Positions 21,115-59,594 of a stretch of DNA of 64,000 nt are shown piece after piece. Every line of letters starts with the position of its first letter. The first letter of the stretch is position 1. The notes beneath the pieces were generated by a model, which made no database searches, was not told the origin of the DNA, and was given only the letters and a program-made list of their open reading frames with translations. Source of the DNA: a virus; IMG/VR virus record IMGVR_UViG_3300047678_000431, positions 21,174 to 85,173 of that record; one strand, written 5' to 3'. The translations under genes were made by a program, and so were the position numbers.

Positions 21115-21747
21115 ATGGGCCTCGATGACTTTTCGGGAATCGCAGGCTATGAAGTAACGGCGGATGTGAAAGGCCTCGACGGCGTCGTGACGACGGTTGA
21201 AAAAGGCCTCGACGCGATCCTCGACCTTCGTCGCGTTGTTCGACAATATCTTGCCGAAGCGCAATCGCAGGCCGTACGCAACGTATCCGGGATTGAAGTG
21301 CAATATAGCGGCGGCACGTTTACGATCAACCGGCAAACCGGCAAACTCGTGCGATCTATTCAGATTTATGATAGCGGCCCGCTTTCCGGTTACGTTGTGG
21401 CCGGTGCGAATTACGCATCCGCACTCGAAAACGGATCACCCGCGCGAGATATGAAGCCGTCTCTTCTTGGGAAAATCATTCCCTTTCCAGTTACCGGGAC
21501 GACAAAAGAAAAGAAACAGGCGGTCGCCGACGGCAACGCGACTGCGATTCAGAAATACGGTAGCACCGGCCGAAAAACGCGTGTCGAGTATATCGCGTTC
21601 CGCAAAGTCGGACCAAATTCAAAAGGGTTTATTATTCCCGCGCAGCCCCCGCGTCCGTTCATGCAGGCCACGGCCGAAGTGATCGGGCCGAAGTTTTCGC
21701 GCGCCGTTGCCGACGCATTCGCGAAATTCATTACCGATAACCCATAG
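21115..21747 (+). CDS. Neck/tail completion protein (HK97 gp10-like)
   Basis: RQTGKLVRSI, YASALENG, PAQPPRPFM. Confidence 0.75.
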   Translation: MGLDDFSGIAGYEVTADVKGLDGVVTTVEKGLDAILDLRRVVRQYLAEAQSQAVRNVSGIEVQYSGGTFTINRQTGKLVRSIQIYDSGPLSGYVVAGANYASALENGSPARDMKPSLLGKIIPFPVTGTTKEKKQAVADGNATAIQKYGSTGRKTRVEYIAFRKVGPNSKGFIIPAQPPRPFMQATAEVIGPKFSRAVADAFAKFITDNP

Positions 21748-34001: not shown

Positions 34002-34045
34002 GTGCTTGCGTGCGTGCGTGTATGCGTGCGTTCGTGTTTTTGCGT
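34002..34045. repeat. 4-bp-periodic TGCG array 1 (intergenic)
   Basis: TGCT TGCG TGCG TGCG TGTA TGCG TGCG TTCG TGTT. Confidence 0.85.
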
Positions 34046-38246: not shown

Positions 38247-38993
38247 ATGAGTATCATCACCGCGCATTGGTCTGCGACGTCGCCCGATGATTCGGGCGTG
38301 TATCACCGGCTCGGCGATTATCATGCTGAGTTCGGATTGATCAAACCGTTGTCAAACACGGTCTTGACGCATTGCCGAAATGCAGTCCACCCGGCCGATG
38401 TGCCGTGGAGTGATCTTTCACATATCTTCGCGGTTTGGAAGAATTACAATTTCGATACGGCGACATCATACGGGACGTGGATGTGGAATCACGATTTCCG
38501 TGATAATACTCCGAATATTGAAGTCGCCGCGTTGTGTATGGGTGGGTCGGATGTTTGCACGACCGATTTCGGCGCGCATCCGTTTACAAAGGCGCATGCG
38601 TGGATGATGGCCGGTGTCATTGCGCGGATCGCAAAACTCAAAGGCATTGATCCGATGCAATCATTCGAGGCGGTCAATGGGTACATGAACGGGCCGCTCT
38701 TTGCGGTTTCCACGCATGGCGAGCGTGCGTACCAAACGGAGAATATGCAAGTCGAGAACGCCGATCGTGGATACTCCGGGTATCGCGGATACGGCGCGTA
38801 TTCTGCCGACCCCGACATGCGATGGGATCTTGACGTCCTCGACGTTGCCGATCTCAAGGCGCTCGGAAGTTTTCAAACCGCATACGCTGCGACGAAATCT
38901 TCGGCGGCATGGCTACGCAACGCGGCCGCGTCGATTATTCACGCAAACTACACGGCCGACATGTGGGGCCTTGACGTGGCCGTCGCGCGTTAA
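38247..38993 (+). CDS. Endolysin, N-acetylmuramoyl-L-alanine amidase-like
   Basis: HWSA...YH...NT.NI..A.LCM...THGE...RWDL. Confidence 0.75.
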   Translation: MSIITAHWSATSPDDSGVYHRLGDYHAEFGLIKPLSNTVLTHCRNAVHPADVPWSDLSHIFAVWKNYNFDTATSYGTWMWNHDFRDNTPNIEVAALCMGGSDVCTTDFGAHPFTKAHAWMMAGVIARIAKLKGIDPMQSFEAVNGYMNGPLFAVSTHGERAYQTENMQVENADRGYSGYRGYGAYSADPDMRWDLDVLDVADLKALGSFQTAYAATKSSAAWLRNAAASIIHANYTADMWGLDVAVAR

Positions 38994-39268
38994 ACCTTCG
39001 AGCGATGATTCGCGAGCATGTCTGTGATGGCGTGCTCGATGAGTGTTTGCTTCTTTACCCCGGTCCGTTTGTAGAGGGCATCAAGCTCGAGCCAAACGGA
39101 TTCACTCAAACGCACGGACATGGGTACGGTGGCTTTTGGCCCCGTGCTTGTTTGCGTGCGTGCGTGCGTGCGTTCTTGTATGTGTGTTTTCGGACTCGTG
39201 GCGAGGTCTTCTAACGAGACAGCGCCGCTTGAGTTCTGGGCATGTTGACGGGACGCACGCGCGCTCAT
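38990..39268 (-). CDS. Ribbon-helix-helix DNA-binding protein (ParG/CopG-like)
   Basis: Disordered N-terminus then MSVRLSESVWLELDALYKRTGVKKQTLIEHAITDML; GGAG RBS; ATGA-coupled to ATPase. Confidence 0.8.
   Translation of the reverse strand: MSARASRQHAQNSSGAVSLEDLATSPKTHIQERTHARTQTSTGPKATVPMSVRLSESVWLELDALYKRTGVKKQTLIEHAITDMLANHRSKV
39143..39189. repeat. 4-bp-periodic TGCG array 2 (inside RHH gene)
   Basis: TGCT TGTT (TGCG)5 TTCT TGTA TGTG TGTT. Confidence 0.85.
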
Positions 39269-40131
39269 GGTGTTTCTCCGTGCCCGAGGGCGTGAGCGGC
39301 ACGGGTGACGTGCCGGATGTGAATGCGGGTCGACTCAAGATCGGCCGCGTAGGACATGGCTCGGTTCGCGATCGTACATGCAATACGCGGCACGCCTCGC
39401 GAATATTCGTAGAGTAAGGCGATTGCGCCATCGTCGAAAAGGTTCTTCTTCGCCCCGGCGACTTTAAGCCGGTGCGCAATCATTTCTTCAAGGTCGTGAG
39501 CATCGAGGCGACTGAGTTGCGTGTGCATCGTCAAACGCGAATGAAACGCGGCATTGCCTTTGAGCACGTCGATCATTTCGGGATTCTGTCCGAACAGAAG
39601 AATTTGCACAAGCGGTCGGTCGACGGCGGTCATGTTACAAATCGACAAAAGCGCGTGAATGCCGGTCGGTCGTAAGAGATGCGCGTCGTCGAGTAAGATC
39701 ACGACGGTATCGCCTTGCTCATGCTGCCGCCACGCTTCGGCCTCGAGCTTGCGTAGGGACGTTTCACTTTTTGCCCGCTCGCGCGTTTCAATCCCGAGAT
39801 CGCGATTGATTTCGAGATGTATTTGCGCCTCGGTTTGCCGGGCGCCGCCGGGAACCCGGTAGAGTGACGCAACAGAATTGCGCTCCCCTGCTTCGCGGGC
39901 GAACAGCGATGCGAGCGTCGTTTTGCCTGTACCGATTTCGCCTGAAATACAGGCGATACCGAGGCGTCCGTTTATGACGTCGCGGCCGTGCTCGAGCGCC
40001 TCGCGCATCGAGCTTGTCACGTATGCGAATTTCGCATGCGGTGAAATCCGAAACGGATACTCTTTGAGATCGAACCATGTGGCGTAGGGCGAGAGCGTTT
40101 CCTCGCAGGGGGTCGTTTTGAATGTATCCAT
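39265..40131 (-). CDS. ExeA-like AAA ATPase (AAA_22)
   Basis: F.L.E.PF, GEIGTGKTT Walker A, ILLDDAH Walker B, LFGQ.PE, YSRGVPR; GGAG RBS before ATG 40131. Confidence 0.88.
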   Translation of the reverse strand: MDTFKTTPCEETLSPYATWFDLKEYPFRISPHAKFAYVTSSMREALEHGRDVINGRLGIACISGEIGTGKTTLASLFAREAGERNSVASLYRVPGGARQTEAQIHLEINRDLGIETRERAKSETSLRKLEAEAWRQHEQGDTVVILLDDAHLLRPTGIHALLSICNMTAVDRPLVQILLFGQNPEMIDVLKGNAAFHSRLTMHTQLSRLDAHDLEEMIAHRLKVAGAKKNLFDDGAIALLYEYSRGVPRIACTIANRAMSYAADLESTRIHIRHVTRAAHALGHGETP

Positions 40132-40137
40132 CTTCTC

Positions 40138-40174
40138 CGCTTGCGTGCGTGCATTCGTGTATGCGTGCGTGCGT
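40138..40174. repeat. 4-bp-periodic TGCG array 3 (directly upstream of ATPase RBS)
   Basis: TGCG TGCG TGCA TTCG TGTA TGCG TGCG TGCG. Confidence 0.85.
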
Positions 40175-40205
40175 CTCTTTTTCCTCAAAGTAAGGAGTCC
40201 TCGTT

Positions 40206-40577
40206 ATGAACGCGACCACATCGCAGGCCCTCGGGTTCTCGCTCAATTTCGTCATCGGTATCGTCGTCGGCGCGCTTGCGTCAAAGTTCACGCCGATCGC
40301 AAAAACGCAAGGCGCAATCGTCGGCAATGAAGTCGGAACGGTCGTCGTCAATTCGGTCAATGCGGATATGGCGCCCGAATTGCGCCCGGCGGTTCTCGCG
40401 GAATTGAAGTCGATCGCGACGACCCTTGAGGCGAAGTCGCAAACCGTCGCGCAAACAGCCTCGCAGATTCTCACGAAGGTCGCCCCCTCGATTCCAACGG
40501 CGACTTCGGATCAGATTGCGCAAGTGCTTGCCGATTTCGTACTCACCTTTGAGGCCGGGTTCATCGCCGAACTCTAA
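40206..40577 (+). CDS. N-terminal TM protein, possible holin
   Basis: TAAGGAG RBS; LGFSLNFVIGIVVGALA TM segment. Confidence 0.55.
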   Translation: MNATTSQALGFSLNFVIGIVVGALASKFTPIAKTQGAIVGNEVGTVVVNSVNADMAPELRPAVLAELKSIATTLEAKSQTVAQTASQILTKVAPSIPTATSDQIAQVLADFVLTFEAGFIAEL

Positions 40578-40621
40578 ACGCACGCATGCATGAAAGCAAG
40601 AACGCACGCATGCATACACAC
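40578..40621. repeat. 4-bp-periodic TGCG array 4 (inverted orientation)
   Basis: Minus strand: TGTG TGTA TGCA TGCG TGCG TTCT TGCT TTCA TGCA TGCG TGCG. Confidence 0.85.
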
Positions 40622-40979: not shown

Positions 40980-42326
40980 GTGGCGATCTCAGAACTTAAA
41001 GCCGTATCCGCGAAATCAGCGTGGGATCAAGCGGTTGCGTGGAAGGCCTCGGCGCCTCCGCAACTGCTTGCGCGATTCATCGAAAAGGCGACCGACGGAA
41101 AGGTCAAAGGCGATCAGCTTTTGCAACTTTTGGCCGAATATTTTCGGCTCGGTATAGCGCCCGAAACGCATTTCATCGTCGGCAATCTACGCGGGAAAGA
41201 CGAGAAGGCAAAGCTCGTCATCACGATCACGCTCAATGCGATGCTCGTGCTCGCCGAGCGCGATCCGAATTTCGGGTCGATTCAAGATGGCGAAGTCGAA
41301 TTTGAATCCGACGGCCTTGCGCCGAAATGGGCGACCGCCTACGTCCGGCGGAAAGACATCGCCGAGCCGTTTGTCGCTCGGTTGCTTTATCGCGAATATG
41401 TCGGCAAAGATTTCAACGGCAAAGTCTCCGGCGTGTGGCGTGACAAGCCCGTCTCGATGCTGTGCAAATGCGCCAAGGCGGCCGCGTTGCGTCTCGCGTA
41501 TCCGACGGCGCTCGCCGGAATCTTCATCCCCGAAGAACTCGAACGCGAGGCCGTCGACGCGGTGGATATGATCCGCGATACCTTCGCGCGCCACGAACAC
41601 GCGGGCGCCGTGGTCAACACGGGAACGGGTGAAGTCATCAAACGGGCCGAGGCCGTGCCGTCCGCGCAATCCGAAAAACCGCCAGTAGAAACGCCGAAGG
41701 ATTCTGATCCGGTACAAACACCCGCCGAGGCGGCAAAACCCGCGCCATCGCCAAAGGACGCGCCGGAAACGGCACCTGCGAAGCCTGCCGTGCCCCTGGT
41801 TTTCCGAGGCATCGACTCGCAAGATATGCGCGGCCCGCTTATCCGTAAGGCATACGAGCTAATGGGCGTGCCGATTGCCAAACAATCGCACGAGCAACAT
41901 CTAGCGGTCATCCGCCAGGTTTCGCACGCGATCGGTCGTCCCGATGGGGCGGTCCCGACAGAATGGGCGGATTTTGAACTCGCCGAGCTTCGCAAGTATG
42001 TCGATTACCGGACCAAAGCGCAATCTGCGATCGCGGCCGATTCGGTCAAGTCTGCGGAAGAACCGCCGAAAACCGAATCACGCTCAAAAACGCAATCTCG
42101 CCGCGACCCGCACGCAATGACGGCCGTGATGGCGCAGATGATCGAGCGCGACACGGAGATTTACGGCCTCGATGAACACACGATCGCCAATATGTGCAAA
42201 GATATATCAAATGGCGCCCTCTCCGATTGGCGAGAATTCTCTCGCGAGCAGGCGGCGCATCTTTTGGACACGATCCGCGCCTTCGCCGAATCGCGCGGTC
42301 TACAGAACAACCGACGGACGGGGTGA
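40980..42326 (+). CDS. RecT/Red-beta-like single-strand annealing protein
   Basis: AYVRRKD, YREY...WRDKPVSMLCKCAKAAALRLAYP...G.FIPEE. Confidence 0.85.
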   Translation: MAISELKAVSAKSAWDQAVAWKASAPPQLLARFIEKATDGKVKGDQLLQLLAEYFRLGIAPETHFIVGNLRGKDEKAKLVITITLNAMLVLAERDPNFGSIQDGEVEFESDGLAPKWATAYVRRKDIAEPFVARLLYREYVGKDFNGKVSGVWRDKPVSMLCKCAKAAALRLAYPTALAGIFIPEELEREAVDAVDMIRDTFARHEHAGAVVNTGTGEVIKRAEAVPSAQSEKPPVETPKDSDPVQTPAEAAKPAPSPKDAPETAPAKPAVPLVFRGIDSQDMRGPLIRKAYELMGVPIAKQSHEQHLAVIRQVSHAIGRPDGAVPTEWADFELAELRKYVDYRTKAQSAIAADSVKSAEEPPKTESRSKTQSRRDPHAMTAVMAQMIERDTEIYGLDEHTIANMCKDISNGALSDWREFSREQAAHLLDTIRAFAESRGLQNNRRTG

Positions 42327-42691: not shown

Positions 42692-42786
42692 ATCTACAAG
42701 ATACCATTTCGAGGCGCCGGACGCAAGAACTTTACAAAAATTTGCGCCTCCCCGCCCGGCAAGTAACCGGAGGGTCGCAGGCATGA
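42643..42786 (+). CDS. Leader peptide coupled to replication initiator (47 aa)
   Basis: GAGGA RBS; its TGA overlaps rep ATG (ATGA at 42783-42786). Confidence 0.55.
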   Translation: MIVRRRRSVAAALPERHLQDTISRRRTQELYKNLRLPARQVTGGSQA

Positions 42787-43784
42787 GCTACGGGACCTAT
42801 ACGGCCGCGATGCTTTCCATCGAACCGGCCGAAGCGCGACACATGGCGTTCACGCTCAATTTGTTCCGCAATCTTGAGACGGGGGAATGCTGGCCCTCTC
42901 AAGAGACGCTTGCCAAAACGGCCGCAATGCACCCCGCAAATGTGCGTCGGGCATTGCGGTCGCTTGAACATCAAAGAATCATCAAACGCGTCGGCGTGAG
43001 CAAATCTCGGACGACGATCTATGTGATCGACCCGATTTTTATTCATAGCCCCGGAACGCAAAGCCCCTCGATTGCCGCCTCGATCGAGACGGCTTCTCGC
43101 AAGCTTACGACTAAGAAGAAGACCCGATCACACCGATCGGTTGACCCGATCACACCGATCGGTTCAACCCGATCACACGGATCGGTATATACCGATCACA
43201 CGGATCGACAACAAGACGATAGACAAGACGATATGACAAGACGAAAGACAACCGGAGTTTTTGTCGCGGCGAAATCAGACGAGGCCGCCGTCGGAGACGT
43301 CGTCTCGTCGGTCGAAGAGATTGCGACAAAAGTCAAAAAAATCGCGAAGAAGAAACCCGAACGGACGTATCACCCCGAGGCATTCGGGATCGTCGATTTT
43401 TTTGCGACCCTTCGCGCCGAGCTTTTGCCGACGGCCGCCGTCGACCAAAAGTTTCGCTTCGCAACGCGCACCGTCGCCGACCGATTGCTCAAACGCGCCT
43501 CGGTCGCCGAGGTCAAGCAACGCATCTTGCGCATGCGGGCGAATATCCCGGATTCAAAGCCGAATCTTTTCGCGAGCCTTGCGCAACTCGAACACCAATG
43601 GGACCGGTGGGGGCCGGGCCGGGAAGAGGCCGCCCGCCTCGCCGGTTTTCAGGCCAAGCTTCCCGAGATCGCGCCGGTCGTCGCATCGGTTCCCGACGAC
43701 GTCCTTGCCGAGATTCGCGAGCGTAAGGCGGCAATGTGGTCGAGTGATCGGAAATCCGAGGCATCGAAGGCGGTGGCGGCGTAA
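42783..43784 (+). CDS. Replication initiator (HTH_36-type, lambda O-like)
   Basis: GECWPSQETLA..AAM....VRRALRSLE....I; internal iterons; followed by DnaC-like loader. Confidence 0.85.
   Translation: MSYGTYTAAMLSIEPAEARHMAFTLNLFRNLETGECWPSQETLAKTAAMHPANVRRALRSLEHQRIIKRVGVSKSRTTIYVIDPIFIHSPGTQSPSIAASIETASRKLTTKKKTRSHRSVDPITPIGSTRSHGSVYTDHTDRQQDDRQDDMTRRKTTGVFVAAKSDEAAVGDVVSSVEEIATKVKKIAKKKPERTYHPEAFGIVDFFATLRAELLPTAAVDQKFRFATRTVADRLLKRASVAEVKQRILRMRANIPDSKPNLFASLAQLEHQWDRWGPGREEAARLAGFQAKLPEIAPVVASVPDDVLAEIRERKAAMWSSDRKSEASKAVAA
43121..43250. repeat. Replication origin: four iterons plus A-rich repeats
   Basis: GACCCGATCACACCGATCGGTT exact twice (43121, 43143), two variants (43166, 43191), then ACAAGACGA three times. 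Confidence 0.8.
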
Positions 43785-44695
43785 TGGACGGGAACTTCAA
43801 GCCTTTGGGGGATTCTCTCGCTCGTGATCTTGGTGCGAAATTTAGCAAAACCCGCATGGTTCCGCGCGGTGTCAAGTGCGATGATTGCGGCGCCGAACTC
43901 GAAGAGCAACACGTCCCGGGCCTTAGCCGTGTCATTCCCGTGCCGTGCATTTGCGTTCGAAATCGCGTGACCGAAGCCGAAGAGATCCGCCGATTGAACC
44001 AGGCCGAGGCCGAGACGCTCGAACGATTGCGGACCCAAGGTGCGGCCCGTCGGGAACGCCTGAAATCCCTCGACCTGATGCCCGACATGATGTCGAAAAA
44101 ATGGACTTTCGAAACCTACGAGGTCGAGCCCGGCAATGCATTGGCCTTTGTCATGGCGGAAAATTTCGTCAACCAAACGTTGCGCGACCGCACGACCTAC
44201 GAGGTTCCCGGGTTCGGCCTCTATGGCGACCACGGCGTCGGGAAGTCGCATCTCACGACCGGCCTCGCGAAGATCCTGATCGAAAAGGGCATCGACGTCG
44301 TGCAGATTTACGAGTACGACATCCGGTCGGTCTTGAACCGTATCCGCAATGGGGAAATCAGCTTTTCCGAGGACGTCTTCGCACAAGACCTGATCTCGGT
44401 GCCGGTTCTCATCATCGAAGATTTCATGAAAAGCCGAGTCAAGAATGCGTCCGGCGCAAACCTCGAATACGTTCACGAGTTTCTCTTCCGTGTCGTACAA
44501 AAACGGATCATGAAAAGTCTCCCGATCATCGTCACGAGTAATCACTCGTACGAAGACCTCCGGGATGTGTATCTCAAGGGGCTCGAATTCGGCCCGGCGA
44601 TCCTCGATCGTTTTGCCGAGAGTTTCGGGTGCGACGAACGCCGGTGGTTACGGATCACGGCGGAAAAAAGCCATCGCCTGCATGGTGCGAAATGA
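43784..44695 (+). CDS. DnaC/IstB-like helicase loader ATPase
   Basis: CDDC...CIC zinc motif, GDHGVGKSHL, VLIIEDF, PIIVTSN, ILDRF. Confidence 0.9.
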   Translation: MDGNFKPLGDSLARDLGAKFSKTRMVPRGVKCDDCGAELEEQHVPGLSRVIPVPCICVRNRVTEAEEIRRLNQAEAETLERLRTQGAARRERLKSLDLMPDMMSKKWTFETYEVEPGNALAFVMAENFVNQTLRDRTTYEVPGFGLYGDHGVGKSHLTTGLAKILIEKGIDVVQIYEYDIRSVLNRIRNGEISFSEDVFAQDLISVPVLIIEDFMKSRVKNASGANLEYVHEFLFRVVQKRIMKSLPIIVTSNHSYEDLRDVYLKGLEFGPAILDRFAESFGCDERRWLRITAEKSHRLHGAK

Positions 44696-57334: not shown

Positions 57335-57988
57335 ATGACCCCCGAGACGCCGAAGCCCCCAAAATCAACAAAGTCGCCTAAAACCGAAAAATCCGGCGAT
57401 TCTCCGCAACCTACGCGCGCGCGCACGCGCGAGGGTGAGAAGAATCAAGAACGCACGCACGCACGCACGCAAACACGCAAACAATCAATTCCCCCTGATG
57501 AGGATGCCGATCGACGAAAGTCGCTTTCCGGCCCGATTCCGCTCGACTCGCCGCTCAAAGAACCCTACATCGAAAAATCTTACGACATGTACGTCCGCAA
57601 GCAGATGAGCTTCTCGCGCATCGCCGAGGCGCTCGGTATCAACCGAGACACGGTGTCGGCGTATGTGAAGTTCGAGTCGACCCGTCGCAGTGAAGAAAAC
57701 GCCGCTATGCGCACGGCCAACATCGAGCGCAACCTCGAGTCGCTCGCGATCGTGGAGGAGACAAACATCTCCCGTATGTTCGCCGCCGACCGCCGGGGTG
57801 ACGAGGCGCGATACGTCCTCGAAGCGTGCAAGCAGCGGATGATGCTACTCGGCCTCGATGAGGGCGTCGTGATCAAGGATGAACGCAAACATGCAAACCC
57901 CTTCGAAGGACTCGGGAGAGACGAACTCGTCGCCATCCTCAAAAACGCCCCAACCGGCGGCGCATTCCACCGACCCGACTCACGATGA
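57335..57988 (+). CDS. Terminase small subunit (HTH type)
   Basis: MSFSRIAEALGINRDTVSAYV, RMMLLGLD; upstream of TerL; GAGGAG RBS. Confidence 0.7.
   Translation: MTPETPKPPKSTKSPKTEKSGDSPQPTRARTREGEKNQERTHARTQTRKQSIPPDEDADRRKSLSGPIPLDSPLKEPYIEKSYDMYVRKQMSFSRIAEALGINRDTVSAYVKFESTRRSEENAAMRTANIERNLESLAIVEETNISRMFAADRRGDEARYVLEACKQRMMLLGLDEGVVIKDERKHANPFEGLGRDELVAILKNAPTGGAFHRPDSR
57446..57485. repeat. 4-bp-periodic TGCG array 5 (inside terS)
   Basis: CAAGAACGCACGCACGCACGCACGCAAACA, 30 bp identical to the reverse complement of 39149-39178. Confidence 0.85.
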
Positions 57989-59594
57989 ATTTGAAACGGA
58001 TGATTCGGTAGTCGACAACTGGGATCGCGCGATTCCGGCGGCCGATCTCCCGGAAACCGGGCTCCCGGAAATCGGCGGCGATCCGGCCGAAGCGGACGAT
58101 CACCTGCTCGGCCTCTGGGAACAGGCGAAGAAAGTCCTCATCTATCAGCGGCCGGAAACCGACGACGAACTGCACGATTATATTCGGGTCTTTCTCGGTG
58201 TCGACATTCCACGCGTCGCCGTCTGCCCGGGTCATCAATCGAGCTTTCAGGCGATTTCCGACCTGTTTTTCATGCGGTATCCGCACGAGAATTTGCTTCT
58301 CATCGGCGGACGCGGCACCGGTAAGACGCTCGGGTTCGCCCTTGTCGAGCACCTGCTCATGTTCTTTGATAAGGACACGATCGCAAACGTCGGCGCGGTC
58401 GAGGCGCAGGCCCTCAAGTGCTATTCCTACATTCAGCGTATCAACCGTGACCCGCTTTTCGCCGAGCACGTGCAGAGTTCGATGCTCTCGAAAACCGTGT
58501 ATAAGAACGGCGGCGAGATCGAGATTCTCCCCGGCACGATGGCGCGCGTGAACTCGCCGCATCCCCGGCTTGCCTGCCTTGACGAGGTCGACCTCTTACC
58601 GTGGCCGATTCTGCAAGAGGCGCTCTCGATGCCGATCAGAACGAACGGCCGCCCCCCGCAAACCGTCTACACATCGAGCCTCAAAAAACGATACGGGCCG
58701 ATGGTCAAACTCCTTGAGGAATCGACCGAGCGCGCGATCCGCACGTACACCTTTTGCGTGTTTGAGGTCATCCAAACGTGCGAACCTGAGCGTCATCAAA
58801 ACGGTGAAGGTTGCTTCACGTGCCCGCTTGCGAAAGAATGCCTCGACTCGATTACGCACGCCGACGGTACGACGGAATATATGCCCGGACCCGGCAAGGC
58901 CGCACGCGCGAAAGGGTTCATGCCCGTCGACGACGTGATCAAACAATTCAAATCGCTCGACAAAGATACATGGGACTCGCAGTGGCGATGCAAGCAACCC
59001 TCGGCGAAAAACCTCGTGTATCCGACGTTCGATCCGAATATTCACGTCATCGACTACGAATGGCAACCGAACCTTCCCGTGTATGCCGGGTTCGACTTTG
59101 GGTTCACGAACGCGTCGGTCGCGGTCTATGTGCAGCAGTTGCCGACCGATGAATTCGTCGTCTTCGCCGAGGACTTTGCGACCTTGCGCGACGCCGTGCA
59201 GTTTGCGGAATCGGTCAAGTCGGAACCCTGGTTCTCGACGACCCTGAATCGACAGGGTGATCCGGCGGCCGCCGACGCGCGCGCAACCTTCAACCGGCTC
59301 GGCATTGCGATCGCGGCCGCGAACAACTCGAAGGACGTTTCGCGTGACGATTCCGGCATCTCAAAAATCCGCTGGCTTCTTGCTCCACCGGGAAGCGTGC
59401 GGCCGCTTTTATATATCTCGCGGAAGTGTGTGAACCTCATCCGCGAGATCAAGAGTTATCACTTCGCGGAATTAAGTGCGACGGCCGATAAGAACAGTAG
59501 AGAAGATCCGGCAAAGGTCGACGACCATGCGCTCGACGCCCTGCGGTATATCATCTCGAAACTCGTCAAGCACAAAGAGCCGAGGAGAGATTAG
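57891..59594 (+). CDS. Terminase large subunit
   Basis: GGRGTGKT Walker A, CLDEVD Walker B, GFDFG and DDHALDALRY nuclease motifs; start uncertain. Confidence 0.92.
   Translation: MQTPSKDSGETNSSPSSKTPQPAAHSTDPTHDEFETDDSVVDNWDRAIPAADLPETGLPEIGGDPAEADDHLLGLWEQAKKVLIYQRPETDDELHDYIRVFLGVDIPRVAVCPGHQSSFQAISDLFFMRYPHENLLLIGGRGTGKTLGFALVEHLLMFFDKDTIANVGAVEAQALKCYSYIQRINRDPLFAEHVQSSMLSKTVYKNGGEIEILPGTMARVNSPHPRLACLDEVDLLPWPILQEALSMPIRTNGRPPQTVYTSSLKKRYGPMVKLLEESTERAIRTYTFCVFEVIQTCEPERHQNGEGCFTCPLAKECLDSITHADGTTEYMPGPGKAARAKGFMPVDDVIKQFKSLDKDTWDSQWRCKQPSAKNLVYPTFDPNIHVIDYEWQPNLPVYAGFDFGFTNASVAVYVQQLPTDEFVVFAEDFATLRDAVQFAESVKSEPWFSTTLNRQGDPAAADARATFNRLGIAIAAANNSKDVSRDDSGISKIRWLLAPPGSVRPLLYISRKCVNLIREIKSYHFAELSATADKNSREDPAKVDDHALDALRYIISKLVKHKEPRRD

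Follow-up and report, generated by a model that had tools for sequence, protein, structure and literature searches.

A coupled AAA+ ATPase and ribbon-helix-helix gene pair with dispersed 4-bp repeat arrays in a phage genome from moss metagenomes

What does an ExeA-like ATPase do in a phage when the gene coupled to it encodes a small soluble protein of a DNA-binding type and not a membrane protein? The question is raised by a two-gene operon in the IMG/VR virus record IMGVR_UViG_3300047678_000431 (85,173 bp), of which we analysed the 64,000-nucleotide stretch from base 21174 to base 85173 (the window; positions below are window positions unless marked "genome", and about 21 kb of the genome lie outside it). 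The operon encodes an AAA+ ATPase and a 92-amino-acid (aa) protein that ends in a predicted ribbon-helix-helix (RHH) domain, and it is accompanied by arrays of 4-bp units; a preliminary description of the window had proposed it as a new kind of partition system. The ATPase-RHH operon with its arrays is a real, rare and undescribed gene module. The reading of it that we favour, at a probability of roughly 0.3, is that of a two-part, DNA-tethered module in which the AAA+ ATPase would be positioned by a DNA-bound adaptor and which would serve to keep the phage DNA as an episome.

The operon and its two proteins

The two genes of the operon are the following:

39265-40131, minus strand: 288-aa AAA+ ATPase of the ExeA clade (AAA_22), recognised by its open reading frame (ORF), domain match and AlphaFold2 model
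38990-39268, minus strand: 92-aa protein with a disordered N-terminal tail (aa 1-49) and a C-terminal RHH (aa 50-91)

The start of the 92-aa gene overlaps the ATPase stop codon (ATGA) and is preceded by a GGAGA Shine-Dalgarno sequence, and as judged from this arrangement the two proteins are translationally coupled. The ATPase matches AAA_22 with an E-value of 6e-16 (59 bits, cut-off 27) and the pepcterm/ExeA-type ATPase family TIGR03015 over its full length (aa 16-274) with 125.6 bits, which is under the equivalog cut-off of 324.5. It also matches AAA_16, AAA, phrog_296 ("DNA transposition protein", E 9e-16) and, weakly, the orc1/cdc6 family TIGR02928, and it has no match to CbiA or AAA_31 or, beyond P-loop noise, to any toxin or PADLOC family. 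The Walker A (GEIGTGKT), Walker B (DDAH), arginine finger (HSR) and sensor-2 (GVPR) motifs are intact and are conserved in 47 relatives, and the protein has neither a transmembrane segment nor a peptidoglycan-binding domain. Its AlphaFold2 model (predicted local distance difference test (pLDDT) 93.6; predicted template modelling score (pTM) 0.88) finds its best Foldseek matches in Cdc6/Orc1 and ORC subunits, TnsC and MuB filaments, with template modelling scores of 0.6-0.7 (TMq 0.71 for VchTnsC 7ufi, 0.66 for ShCAST TnsC 7m99 and 0.65 for MuB 8xvb). It is the AAA+ module that matches the Cdc6/Orc1 structures 1fnn and 2qby, which are 366-394 aa long including a winged-helix domain; the 288-aa model stops after the lid helices and has no such domain. 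As modelled, the fold is closest to those of DNA-loading, oligomerising AAA+ proteins (Cdc6/ORC, TnsC and MuB).

The 92-aa protein matches RHH_3 at aa 48-88 (E 0.0014, 19 bits, slightly under the cut-off of 21.6), and in its AlphaFold2 model aa 50-91 form an extended strand and two helices with pLDDT values of 87-94, while aa 1-49 are of low confidence. The top Foldseek rows for this model are all RHH proteins (CopA, CopG, PutA, antitoxins and omega), but their E-values are above 0.4, as is expected for a core of 40 residues. The best cluster in the ESM-atlas is RHH_3/Antitox_RHH (at 0.90), with CopG, Arc and partly a ParG cluster among the further neighbours. HMMER found only the protein itself among 1.84 billion representatives, and a word-index search, a two-sequence profile and sequence searches of the PDB gave no relatives. 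These matches and models bear out the preliminary description, which had called the pair an ExeA/AAA_22 ATPase ATGA-coupled to a 92-aa protein with a disordered N-terminus and a C-terminal RHH. A type II toxin-antitoxin pair was considered and rejected: the RHH is C-terminal, its gene is the second of the two, antitoxin models stay below threshold (13-17 bits against cut-offs of 50-60), and the ATPase matches no toxin family beyond P-loop noise.

Seven arrays of 4-bp units

The whole genome was searched on either strand for runs of the unit (C/A/T)(G/A)(C/A)A. It holds exactly seven runs of at least five units, all of them 8-12 units (32-48 bp) long, where Markov-1 and Markov-3 simulations predict 0.03-0.08 runs of at least five units and none of at least six; the arrays are non-random. 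Every fourth base is an invariant A (T on the opposite strand) over about 70 units, and the other three positions vary within a narrow alphabet. The arrays, with the small divergent gene that lies between two of them, are placed as follows:

39145-39192, minus strand: array A, 12 units, inside the RHH gene, where it encodes ENTHIQERTHARTQTS of the disordered tail
40142-40173, minus strand: array B, 8 units in the 74-bp divergent intergenic region, ending 4 nt before the GGAG of the ATPase ATG
40206-40577, plus strand: divergent 123-aa gene between arrays B and C, with an N-terminal transmembrane helix and a strong AAGGAG Shine-Dalgarno sequence
40575-40618, plus strand: array C, 11 units in inverted orientation, beginning at the stop of the 123-aa gene
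34003-34042, minus strand: dispersed array, 10 units between two plus-strand genes of the tail/baseplate region
57448-57483, plus strand: dispersed array, 9 units inside the ORF 57335-57988 (putative terS) upstream of terL, where it encodes ERTHARTQT
genome 498-533 and genome 14855-14898: dispersed arrays, both outside the window

Arrays B, A and C are those that the preliminary description had seen upstream of the ATPase ribosome-binding site, inside the RHH gene and near 40578-40621. Their placing is confirmed; with four more elsewhere the arrays are not private to the locus. The presence of three of the seven within 1.47 kb at the operon has P = 0.0005 for this operon with 500 bp on either side and P = 0.03 for any 1.5-kb window, the latter being the fairer figure for a clustering noticed post hoc.

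Around the operon, array C is followed by about 360 bp of non-coding DNA and then by recT, and a stretch of 38-40% guanine plus cytosine (GC), at a distance of 250 bp from array C, falls on a promoter-like site for recT. The 123-aa gene has no family match in library searches. An alternative ATPase start, TTG at 40188, would add 19 residues encoded by array B, and at 40190-40206 the AAGGAG of the 123-aa gene (plus strand) and a possible GAGGA for the TTG start are complementary copies on the same bases.

Arrays within genes are translated into peptides of the ERTHARTQ type in the RHH tail, the putative TerS and a secreted protein of 154 aa. The 4-nt repeat yields (THAR)n or (ACVR)n in all frames without stops, and because it reads as the same peptide in all three frames, the "THART" frame that the sense arrays have in common carries no information. 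A 30-mer (CAAGA, five copies of ACGC, AAACA) is identical at 39150-39179 and 57447-57476, 18 kb apart, and encodes QERTHARTQT in both places. One copy lies in the RHH gene and the other in the ORF that precedes terL, and their identity suggests that arrays were recently copied or exchanged by gene conversion. At genome 14845-14900 (L168) it is the opposite strand of the array that is translated, into the signal peptide LLSCVLACVYACVLASC of a proline/threonine-rich lipoprotein of 629 aa; together with the lipobox it reads VKRLLSCVLACVYACVLASC/D, and this would be a DNA-level repeat that doubles as a signal peptide. On the TGCG strand, 34007-34040 and 40142-40183 (plus) might form G-C/G-U hairpins with T-rich tails and were flagged as terminator-like. 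Such calls were made for no more than two or three of the arrays; at 34007 the array separates a pair of plus-strand tail-region genes. Two further leads were dropped: the orientation of the arrays, which has two switch points round the circle, is uninformative since about a third of random arrangements are alike, and apparent joints between arrays in sequencing runs proved to be short microsatellite contigs of other organisms.

Relatives of the pair and the genome that carries it

Among 5.8 billion clusters the ATPase has six close homologs (P0002-P0007; 42-56% identity, 284-296 aa), which are encoded on contigs of 85,955, 73,851, 25,228, 17,400, 2,765 and 1,963 nt, and its other accessible relatives are cellular and about 30% identical (Omnitrophota, Planctomycetota, Hydrogenedentota and the exopolysaccharide (EPS) plasmids of Rhodobacterales). 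When IMG/VR, JGI metagenomes and GTDB were scanned, with the ATPase or its alignment as query, the matches were cellular ExeA-like genes of about 30% identity and a 1,950-nt metagenome contig (L002) whose ATPase, at 36% identity, is the closest accessible relative; GenBank phages gave no match, and plasmids gave matches of at most 31% identity. At about 130 of 160 cellular loci (L003-L161) the ATPase gene is followed, often with a 4-nt ATGA overlap, by one for a bitopic, GspB/ExeB-like membrane protein that begins with MSIIxDALKK, and this conserved N-terminus is probably the peptide by which GspB-like partners dock on the ATPase. In a quick maximum-likelihood tree the phage ATPase, its six close homologs and that of L002 form one clade of eight (Shimodaira-Hasegawa-like approximate likelihood ratio test (SH-aLRT) support 97), and a VPGGxRQTE insert after strand beta-2 is specific to these phage-type ATPases. 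The sister group includes an ATPase (L165) from a 212-kb plasmid of Leptolinea sp. HRD-7 (AP024711.1).

Is the membrane partner also present in these two clades? The L002 partner is a 114-aa protein. Its ORF has an 11-nt overlap with the ATPase stop, its N-terminal 70 aa are of low complexity, and its C-terminus, NIRLGEKTEARVAPLIEDSRLSLTHLIEFALHRLLEDL, aligns in register with the RHH of the window (pairwise BLASTP E 0.096; Pfam silent). In L165 the partner has 108 aa, a 4-nt overlap with the ATPase, a proline-rich N-terminal tail and an RHH-like strand-helix-helix core. In all three loci that could be read in the two clades (phage, L002 and L165), a small partner with an N-terminal tail and a predicted RHH or RHH-like core replaces the membrane partner. 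A short N-terminal motif may be common to partners of every kind (IYDAL in the GspB-like proteins; LYDAR, IADELA and LEDLA in the others), which is a weak lead. Homologs beside type II secretion genes or transposases, which the preliminary description took as speaking against a partition role, are found in the wider family and not in the RHH-partnered clade.

The surroundings of the two related pairs have repeats of their own. Upstream of the L002 operon, at 402-557, lie three palindrome-like motifs of about 17 bp (CTCTCAGTCTAAGAGAG, CACTCATATTAAGAGAT and CTCTTATCATGAGAG), which are operator-like and not of period 4, and the repeats upstream of L165 are ordinary ones of 22-27 bp. The Leptolinea region L271 (190113-197861) contains, in this order, Soj/ParA, its partner, the sister-clade ATPase, the 108-aa partner and a DnaA_N protein, with a 27-bp repeat in 2.2 copies between the last two; it is possibly a block for plasmid replication and maintenance.

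The phage genome itself is complete (100% by CheckV) and has 55.5% GC. The ends of the record overlap by 127 bp, by which the assembly is circular. Encoding a portal, a protease/major-head protein, a tail sheath, a tape measure and TerL, it is that of a myovirus-type phage, and the following genes give the setting of the operon:

40980-42326: RecT, of the replication module to the right of the operon
42783-43784: O-like initiator, replication module
43784-44695: DnaC-like loader, replication module, which also contains a helicase
57879-59594: TerL, by profile matches

Inside the O-like initiator gene, at 43122-43251, tandem repeats (23 bp in 3.8 copies, then 12 bp in 3.3 copies) look like lambda-style origin iterons. 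By profile searches the neighbours of the operon are phage tail-region and replication genes. The 248-aa and 124-aa neighbours match nothing in Pfam, PHROG or NCBIfam, and a search found no relatives of the former, so that the "lysis region" of the preliminary description could not be confirmed; nor is its "prophage" borne out, the record being a circular metagenomic virus contig. Sequence identical to the phage is present in moss-metagenome runs of several studies, in contigs without strain variation, and none of the listed sequencing runs that carry it is an RNA run. The phage stands rather alone: IMG/VR yielded a single contig with a related TerL (33% identity), which does not carry the ATPase, the nearest TerL of cultured phages is 23-30% identical, and plasmids gave no TerL match.

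Profile searches of the whole genome, the 21 kb beyond the window included, found no tyrosine integrase, serine recombinase/resolvase or rve transposase and neither ParA (AAA_31/CbiA) nor ParB; the sole CbiA match is a 14.5-bit P-loop match of the DnaC-like gene. An integrase or parA just outside the window had been named beforehand as evidence against partition, and neither is there. The placing of the ATPase outside any type II secretion or transposon context is likewise upheld, given its RHH partner, its phage neighbours and the lack of rve in the complete genome. A DnaA_N protein is also missing from the phage genome. The only HTH_3 regulator (genome 18818-19324, minus strand; a 168-aa open frame with the helix-turn-helix in its C-terminal half) and a 92-aa sigma-factor-like protein (genome 20258-20536, plus strand) are encoded outside the window and may be the main regulatory switch of the phage.

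Partition, regulation, repeat spreading or replication

The known system that the operon most calls to mind is type Ib par. As in TP228 parF-parG-parH/OF, an ATPase gene is followed by one for a small protein whose N-terminal tail is flexible and whose C-terminal part is an RHH, and short degenerate repeat arrays, which could be operator as well as centromere, lie directly upstream (PMC3130281). The preliminary description had seen this architecture with a motor other than ParA, and so do we: the phage ATPase is an AAA+ protein (AAA_22, ExeA clade) and not a ParA with a deviant Walker A motif. Another type Ib locus is delta/omega of pSM19035, in which the omega sites are likewise dispersed, over several promoters. 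TP228 has 8 OF boxes and 12 parH ACTC boxes with one ParG dimer per box (PMC3130281). Its 4-bp boxes are set apart by 4-bp AT-rich spacers, whereas the phage units are contiguous, GC-rich, partly coding and spread over 85 kb. For dispersed sites there is a precedent in the plasmid-prophage N15, whose four centromere sites IR1-4 are, like the phage arrays, separate genome sites and no single block (PMC7205306). N15, however, has SopA/SopB of the ParA/ParB type, inverted-repeat ("IR") sites and a proven plasmid lifestyle, and the phage has neither ParA nor ParB.

In sequence the phage ATPase is closest to the ExeA/GspA-ExeB/GspB, MshM and XrtA/PEP-CTERM ATPases, whose genes are likewise followed by one for a partner, in many cases through an ATGA overlap. 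In cells, at secretion, pilus or EPS loci, this partner is a bitopic membrane protein, whereas that of the phage is a soluble RHH protein, and the phage ATPase has the VPGGxRQTE insert and neither a GspB/ExeB-like partner nor secretion, pilus or EPS neighbours. MuB, TnsC and Cdc6/ORC are AAA+ proteins that assemble on DNA and are positioned by a specificity factor. The phage ATPase has its fold in common with MuB, TnsC/TniB and Cdc6/ORC, and would share with them the logic of a sequence-specific adaptor and an ATP-dependent oligomeric ATPase. Unlike MuB and TnsC/TniB it is accompanied by no DDE (rve) transposase anywhere in the genome and by no TniQ, and unlike Cdc6/ORC it lacks a winged helix, and no MCM or helicase partner is encoded alongside. 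None of these proteins is, to our knowledge, known to have an RHH adaptor. The established classes were accordingly each rejected, type Ib par on the ATPase, ExeA-ExeB on partner and context, MuB/TnsC on the missing transposase and Orc1/Cdc6 on the missing winged helix, and we found no paper that joins ExeA and ribbon-helix-helix with phage, or AAA_22 with phage-plasmids or partition.

How might a two-part, DNA-tethered module work? The anatomy is what we observe, and from it we infer DNA binding, protein-protein contact and segregation. Dimers of the RHH protein would bind cooperatively along the arrays, in the manner of ParG on ACTC boxes or of omega on heptads, and in doing so would repress the divergent promoter region, by which the operon would be autoregulated, and mark four other sites in the genome. 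The N-terminal tail of the RHH protein would dock on the ATPase and regulate it, and the ATPase in its ATP form would assemble on or beside the marked DNA. Positioning or tethering would come about through an ATP-dependent DNA-binding cycle of the MuB/ParA style that the adaptor stimulates; Han and Mizuuchi reportedly observed in 2010 that the behaviour of MuB parallels the ParA diffusion ratchet. The most likely use of the module, which we put forward tentatively, would be to keep the phage DNA as an episome, either positioned in a partition-like way or tethered to the nucleoid, since replication genes are present and integrase, ParA and ParB are absent. We rank this use first because of the type Ib anatomy, the lack of any other inheritance device in the genome and the dispersed sites of N15. 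Bacterial DNA segregation motors belong to three families, ParA, actin-like ParM and tubulin-like TubZ, and RHH adaptors serve two of them. A more specific proposal, which we regard as unlikely, is that the module is a fourth kind of partition machine, in which an AAA+ (ExeA/MuB-like) ATPase and an RHH centromere-binding adaptor would position or tether an extrachromosomal phage genome via its seven dispersed, centromere-like arrays; the adaptor would then have taken the place of the GspB-like membrane anchor of an ancestral, secretion-associated ATPase.

Several observations weigh against an episome-maintenance module. Four of the seven arrays are far from the operon and dispersed genome-wide, and six of the seven are either no more than about 150 nt from a gene start or placed at a gene boundary; relative to transcription, both orientations occur. 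Such placement, near gene boundaries and in both orientations, suggests a role at the DNA rather than the RNA level, but with some arrays coding it suits regulation or the spreading of a repeat equally well. The ATPase-RHH pairing does recur in L002 and L165, with RHH cores that are recognised there by pattern and alignment and have no Pfam match; tetramer arrays are found at neither locus. On the Leptolinea plasmid a canonical Soj/ParA with a 140-aa partner lies 4.5 kb from the homologous pair, which is consequently not the only candidate par system of that plasmid, and the pair is directly followed by the gene for a 295-aa DnaA_N-domain protein. We know of no ExeA-like ATPase for which DNA binding has been established, and the hint of a temperate or episomal life in the phage genome is limited to one HTH_3 regulator gene.

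The nearness of six arrays to gene starts or boundaries counts in favour of a global regulator, a possible though improbable reading in which the RHH protein would be an omega/Arc/Mnt-like repressor on arrays near several gene starts (its own operon, the 123-aa gene, a baseplate-region gene, the lipoprotein gene, terS and the gene of the secreted 154-aa protein) and the ATPase would be a co-repressor or a remodeller, able to stabilise, spread or take apart the repressive complex as part of a temporal or lytic/lysogenic switch. Much of the 74-bp intergenic region between the divergent genes is taken up by array B, the three motifs upstream of the L002 ATPase are typical of an operator, and RHH proteins are mostly repressors, with CopG, PutA, antitoxins and omega in the top Foldseek rows. 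A regulator of this kind fits less well with several arrays being coding, and in both orientations relative to transcription, or with the finding that no sigma-70-like promoter overlaps an array (the sigma-70 model may not be the promoter type of the host), and a 49-aa tail and a coupled AAA+ partner, the latter conserved across three elements, would be superfluous for a plain repressor. It is also conceivable, although we think it doubtful, that arrays and operon have nothing to do with each other, the arrays being a self-spreading or slippage-born repeat and the ATPase-RHH pair accessory cargo for exclusion, defence or interference with ExeA/GspB-type secretion or pilus assembly of the host, with an RHH protein that is only an autoregulator acting at another site. 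The copying suggested by the shared 30-mer agrees with this, as do the (THAR)n/(ACVR)n readings in every frame and the lengths of the three sense-coding arrays (36, 48 and 36 bp, all multiples of 12): (ACGC)n is tolerated inside ORFs because it has no stop codon in any frame on either strand. Microsatellites of (ACGC)5 occur in at least 100 other viral contigs of IMG/VR, none of them related to the phage or carrying the ATPase, the relatives L002 and L165 do without such arrays, and the operon stands alone and antisense between modules, as morons typically do. Decay of a microsatellite would however not account for the invariant A at every fourth base of about 70 units with a restricted alphabet between, nor for the complete lack of arrays of 5-7 units, which points to selection for a discrete element; moreover, three of the seven arrays are at the operon, the PADLOC search was without a match, and the ATPase clade is old and distinct from the GspB-partnered cellular proteins, which argues against a recent pick-up from a host.

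Least likely of these alternatives, in our view, is a replication module, in which the ATPase would be an initiator or loader of the Cdc6/ORC or DnaC type, the RHH protein would supply its DNA-binding domain in trans, and the array cluster at the operon would be an origin or loading site, for example for a plasmid mode of replication distinct from the lytic O-type origin. Cdc6/Orc1 and ORC subunits are the best structural matches and TIGR02928 a weak sequence match, the operon abuts recT, the O-like initiator (with internal 23-bp iterons at 43122-43207), the DnaC-like loader and the helicase, a DnaA_N-domain protein comes directly after the Leptolinea pair, and the stretch of lowered GC is near array C. 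Yet the phage already encodes a full set of initiator, loader and helicase, seven dispersed arrays would be odd for origins, the ATPase has no winged-helix domain and the phage no DnaA_N protein, and the AT-rich stretch near array C falls on the promoter-like site of recT.

Whichever use is correct, the phased 4-bp arrays, which occur both within coding sequence and outside it, are a signal in the DNA that is as yet unexplained and lends itself to simple binding assays. The exchange of partners suggests that one ATPase scaffold may be retargeted by swapping the small adaptor coupled to it: in cells this is a GspB-like membrane protein, in a phage, a plasmid and one metagenome contig a predicted DNA binder of the RHH type. 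This would offer a handle on the poorly understood cytoplasmic role of ExeA-type ATPases. If a DNA-tethered module for episome maintenance is indeed what the phage encodes, an AAA+ ATPase whose fold is of the MuB/TnsC/ORC class, working with an RHH adaptor on repeat arrays, would be an added class of segregation motor, and would provide a mechanistic link between transposition-target ATPases and partition.

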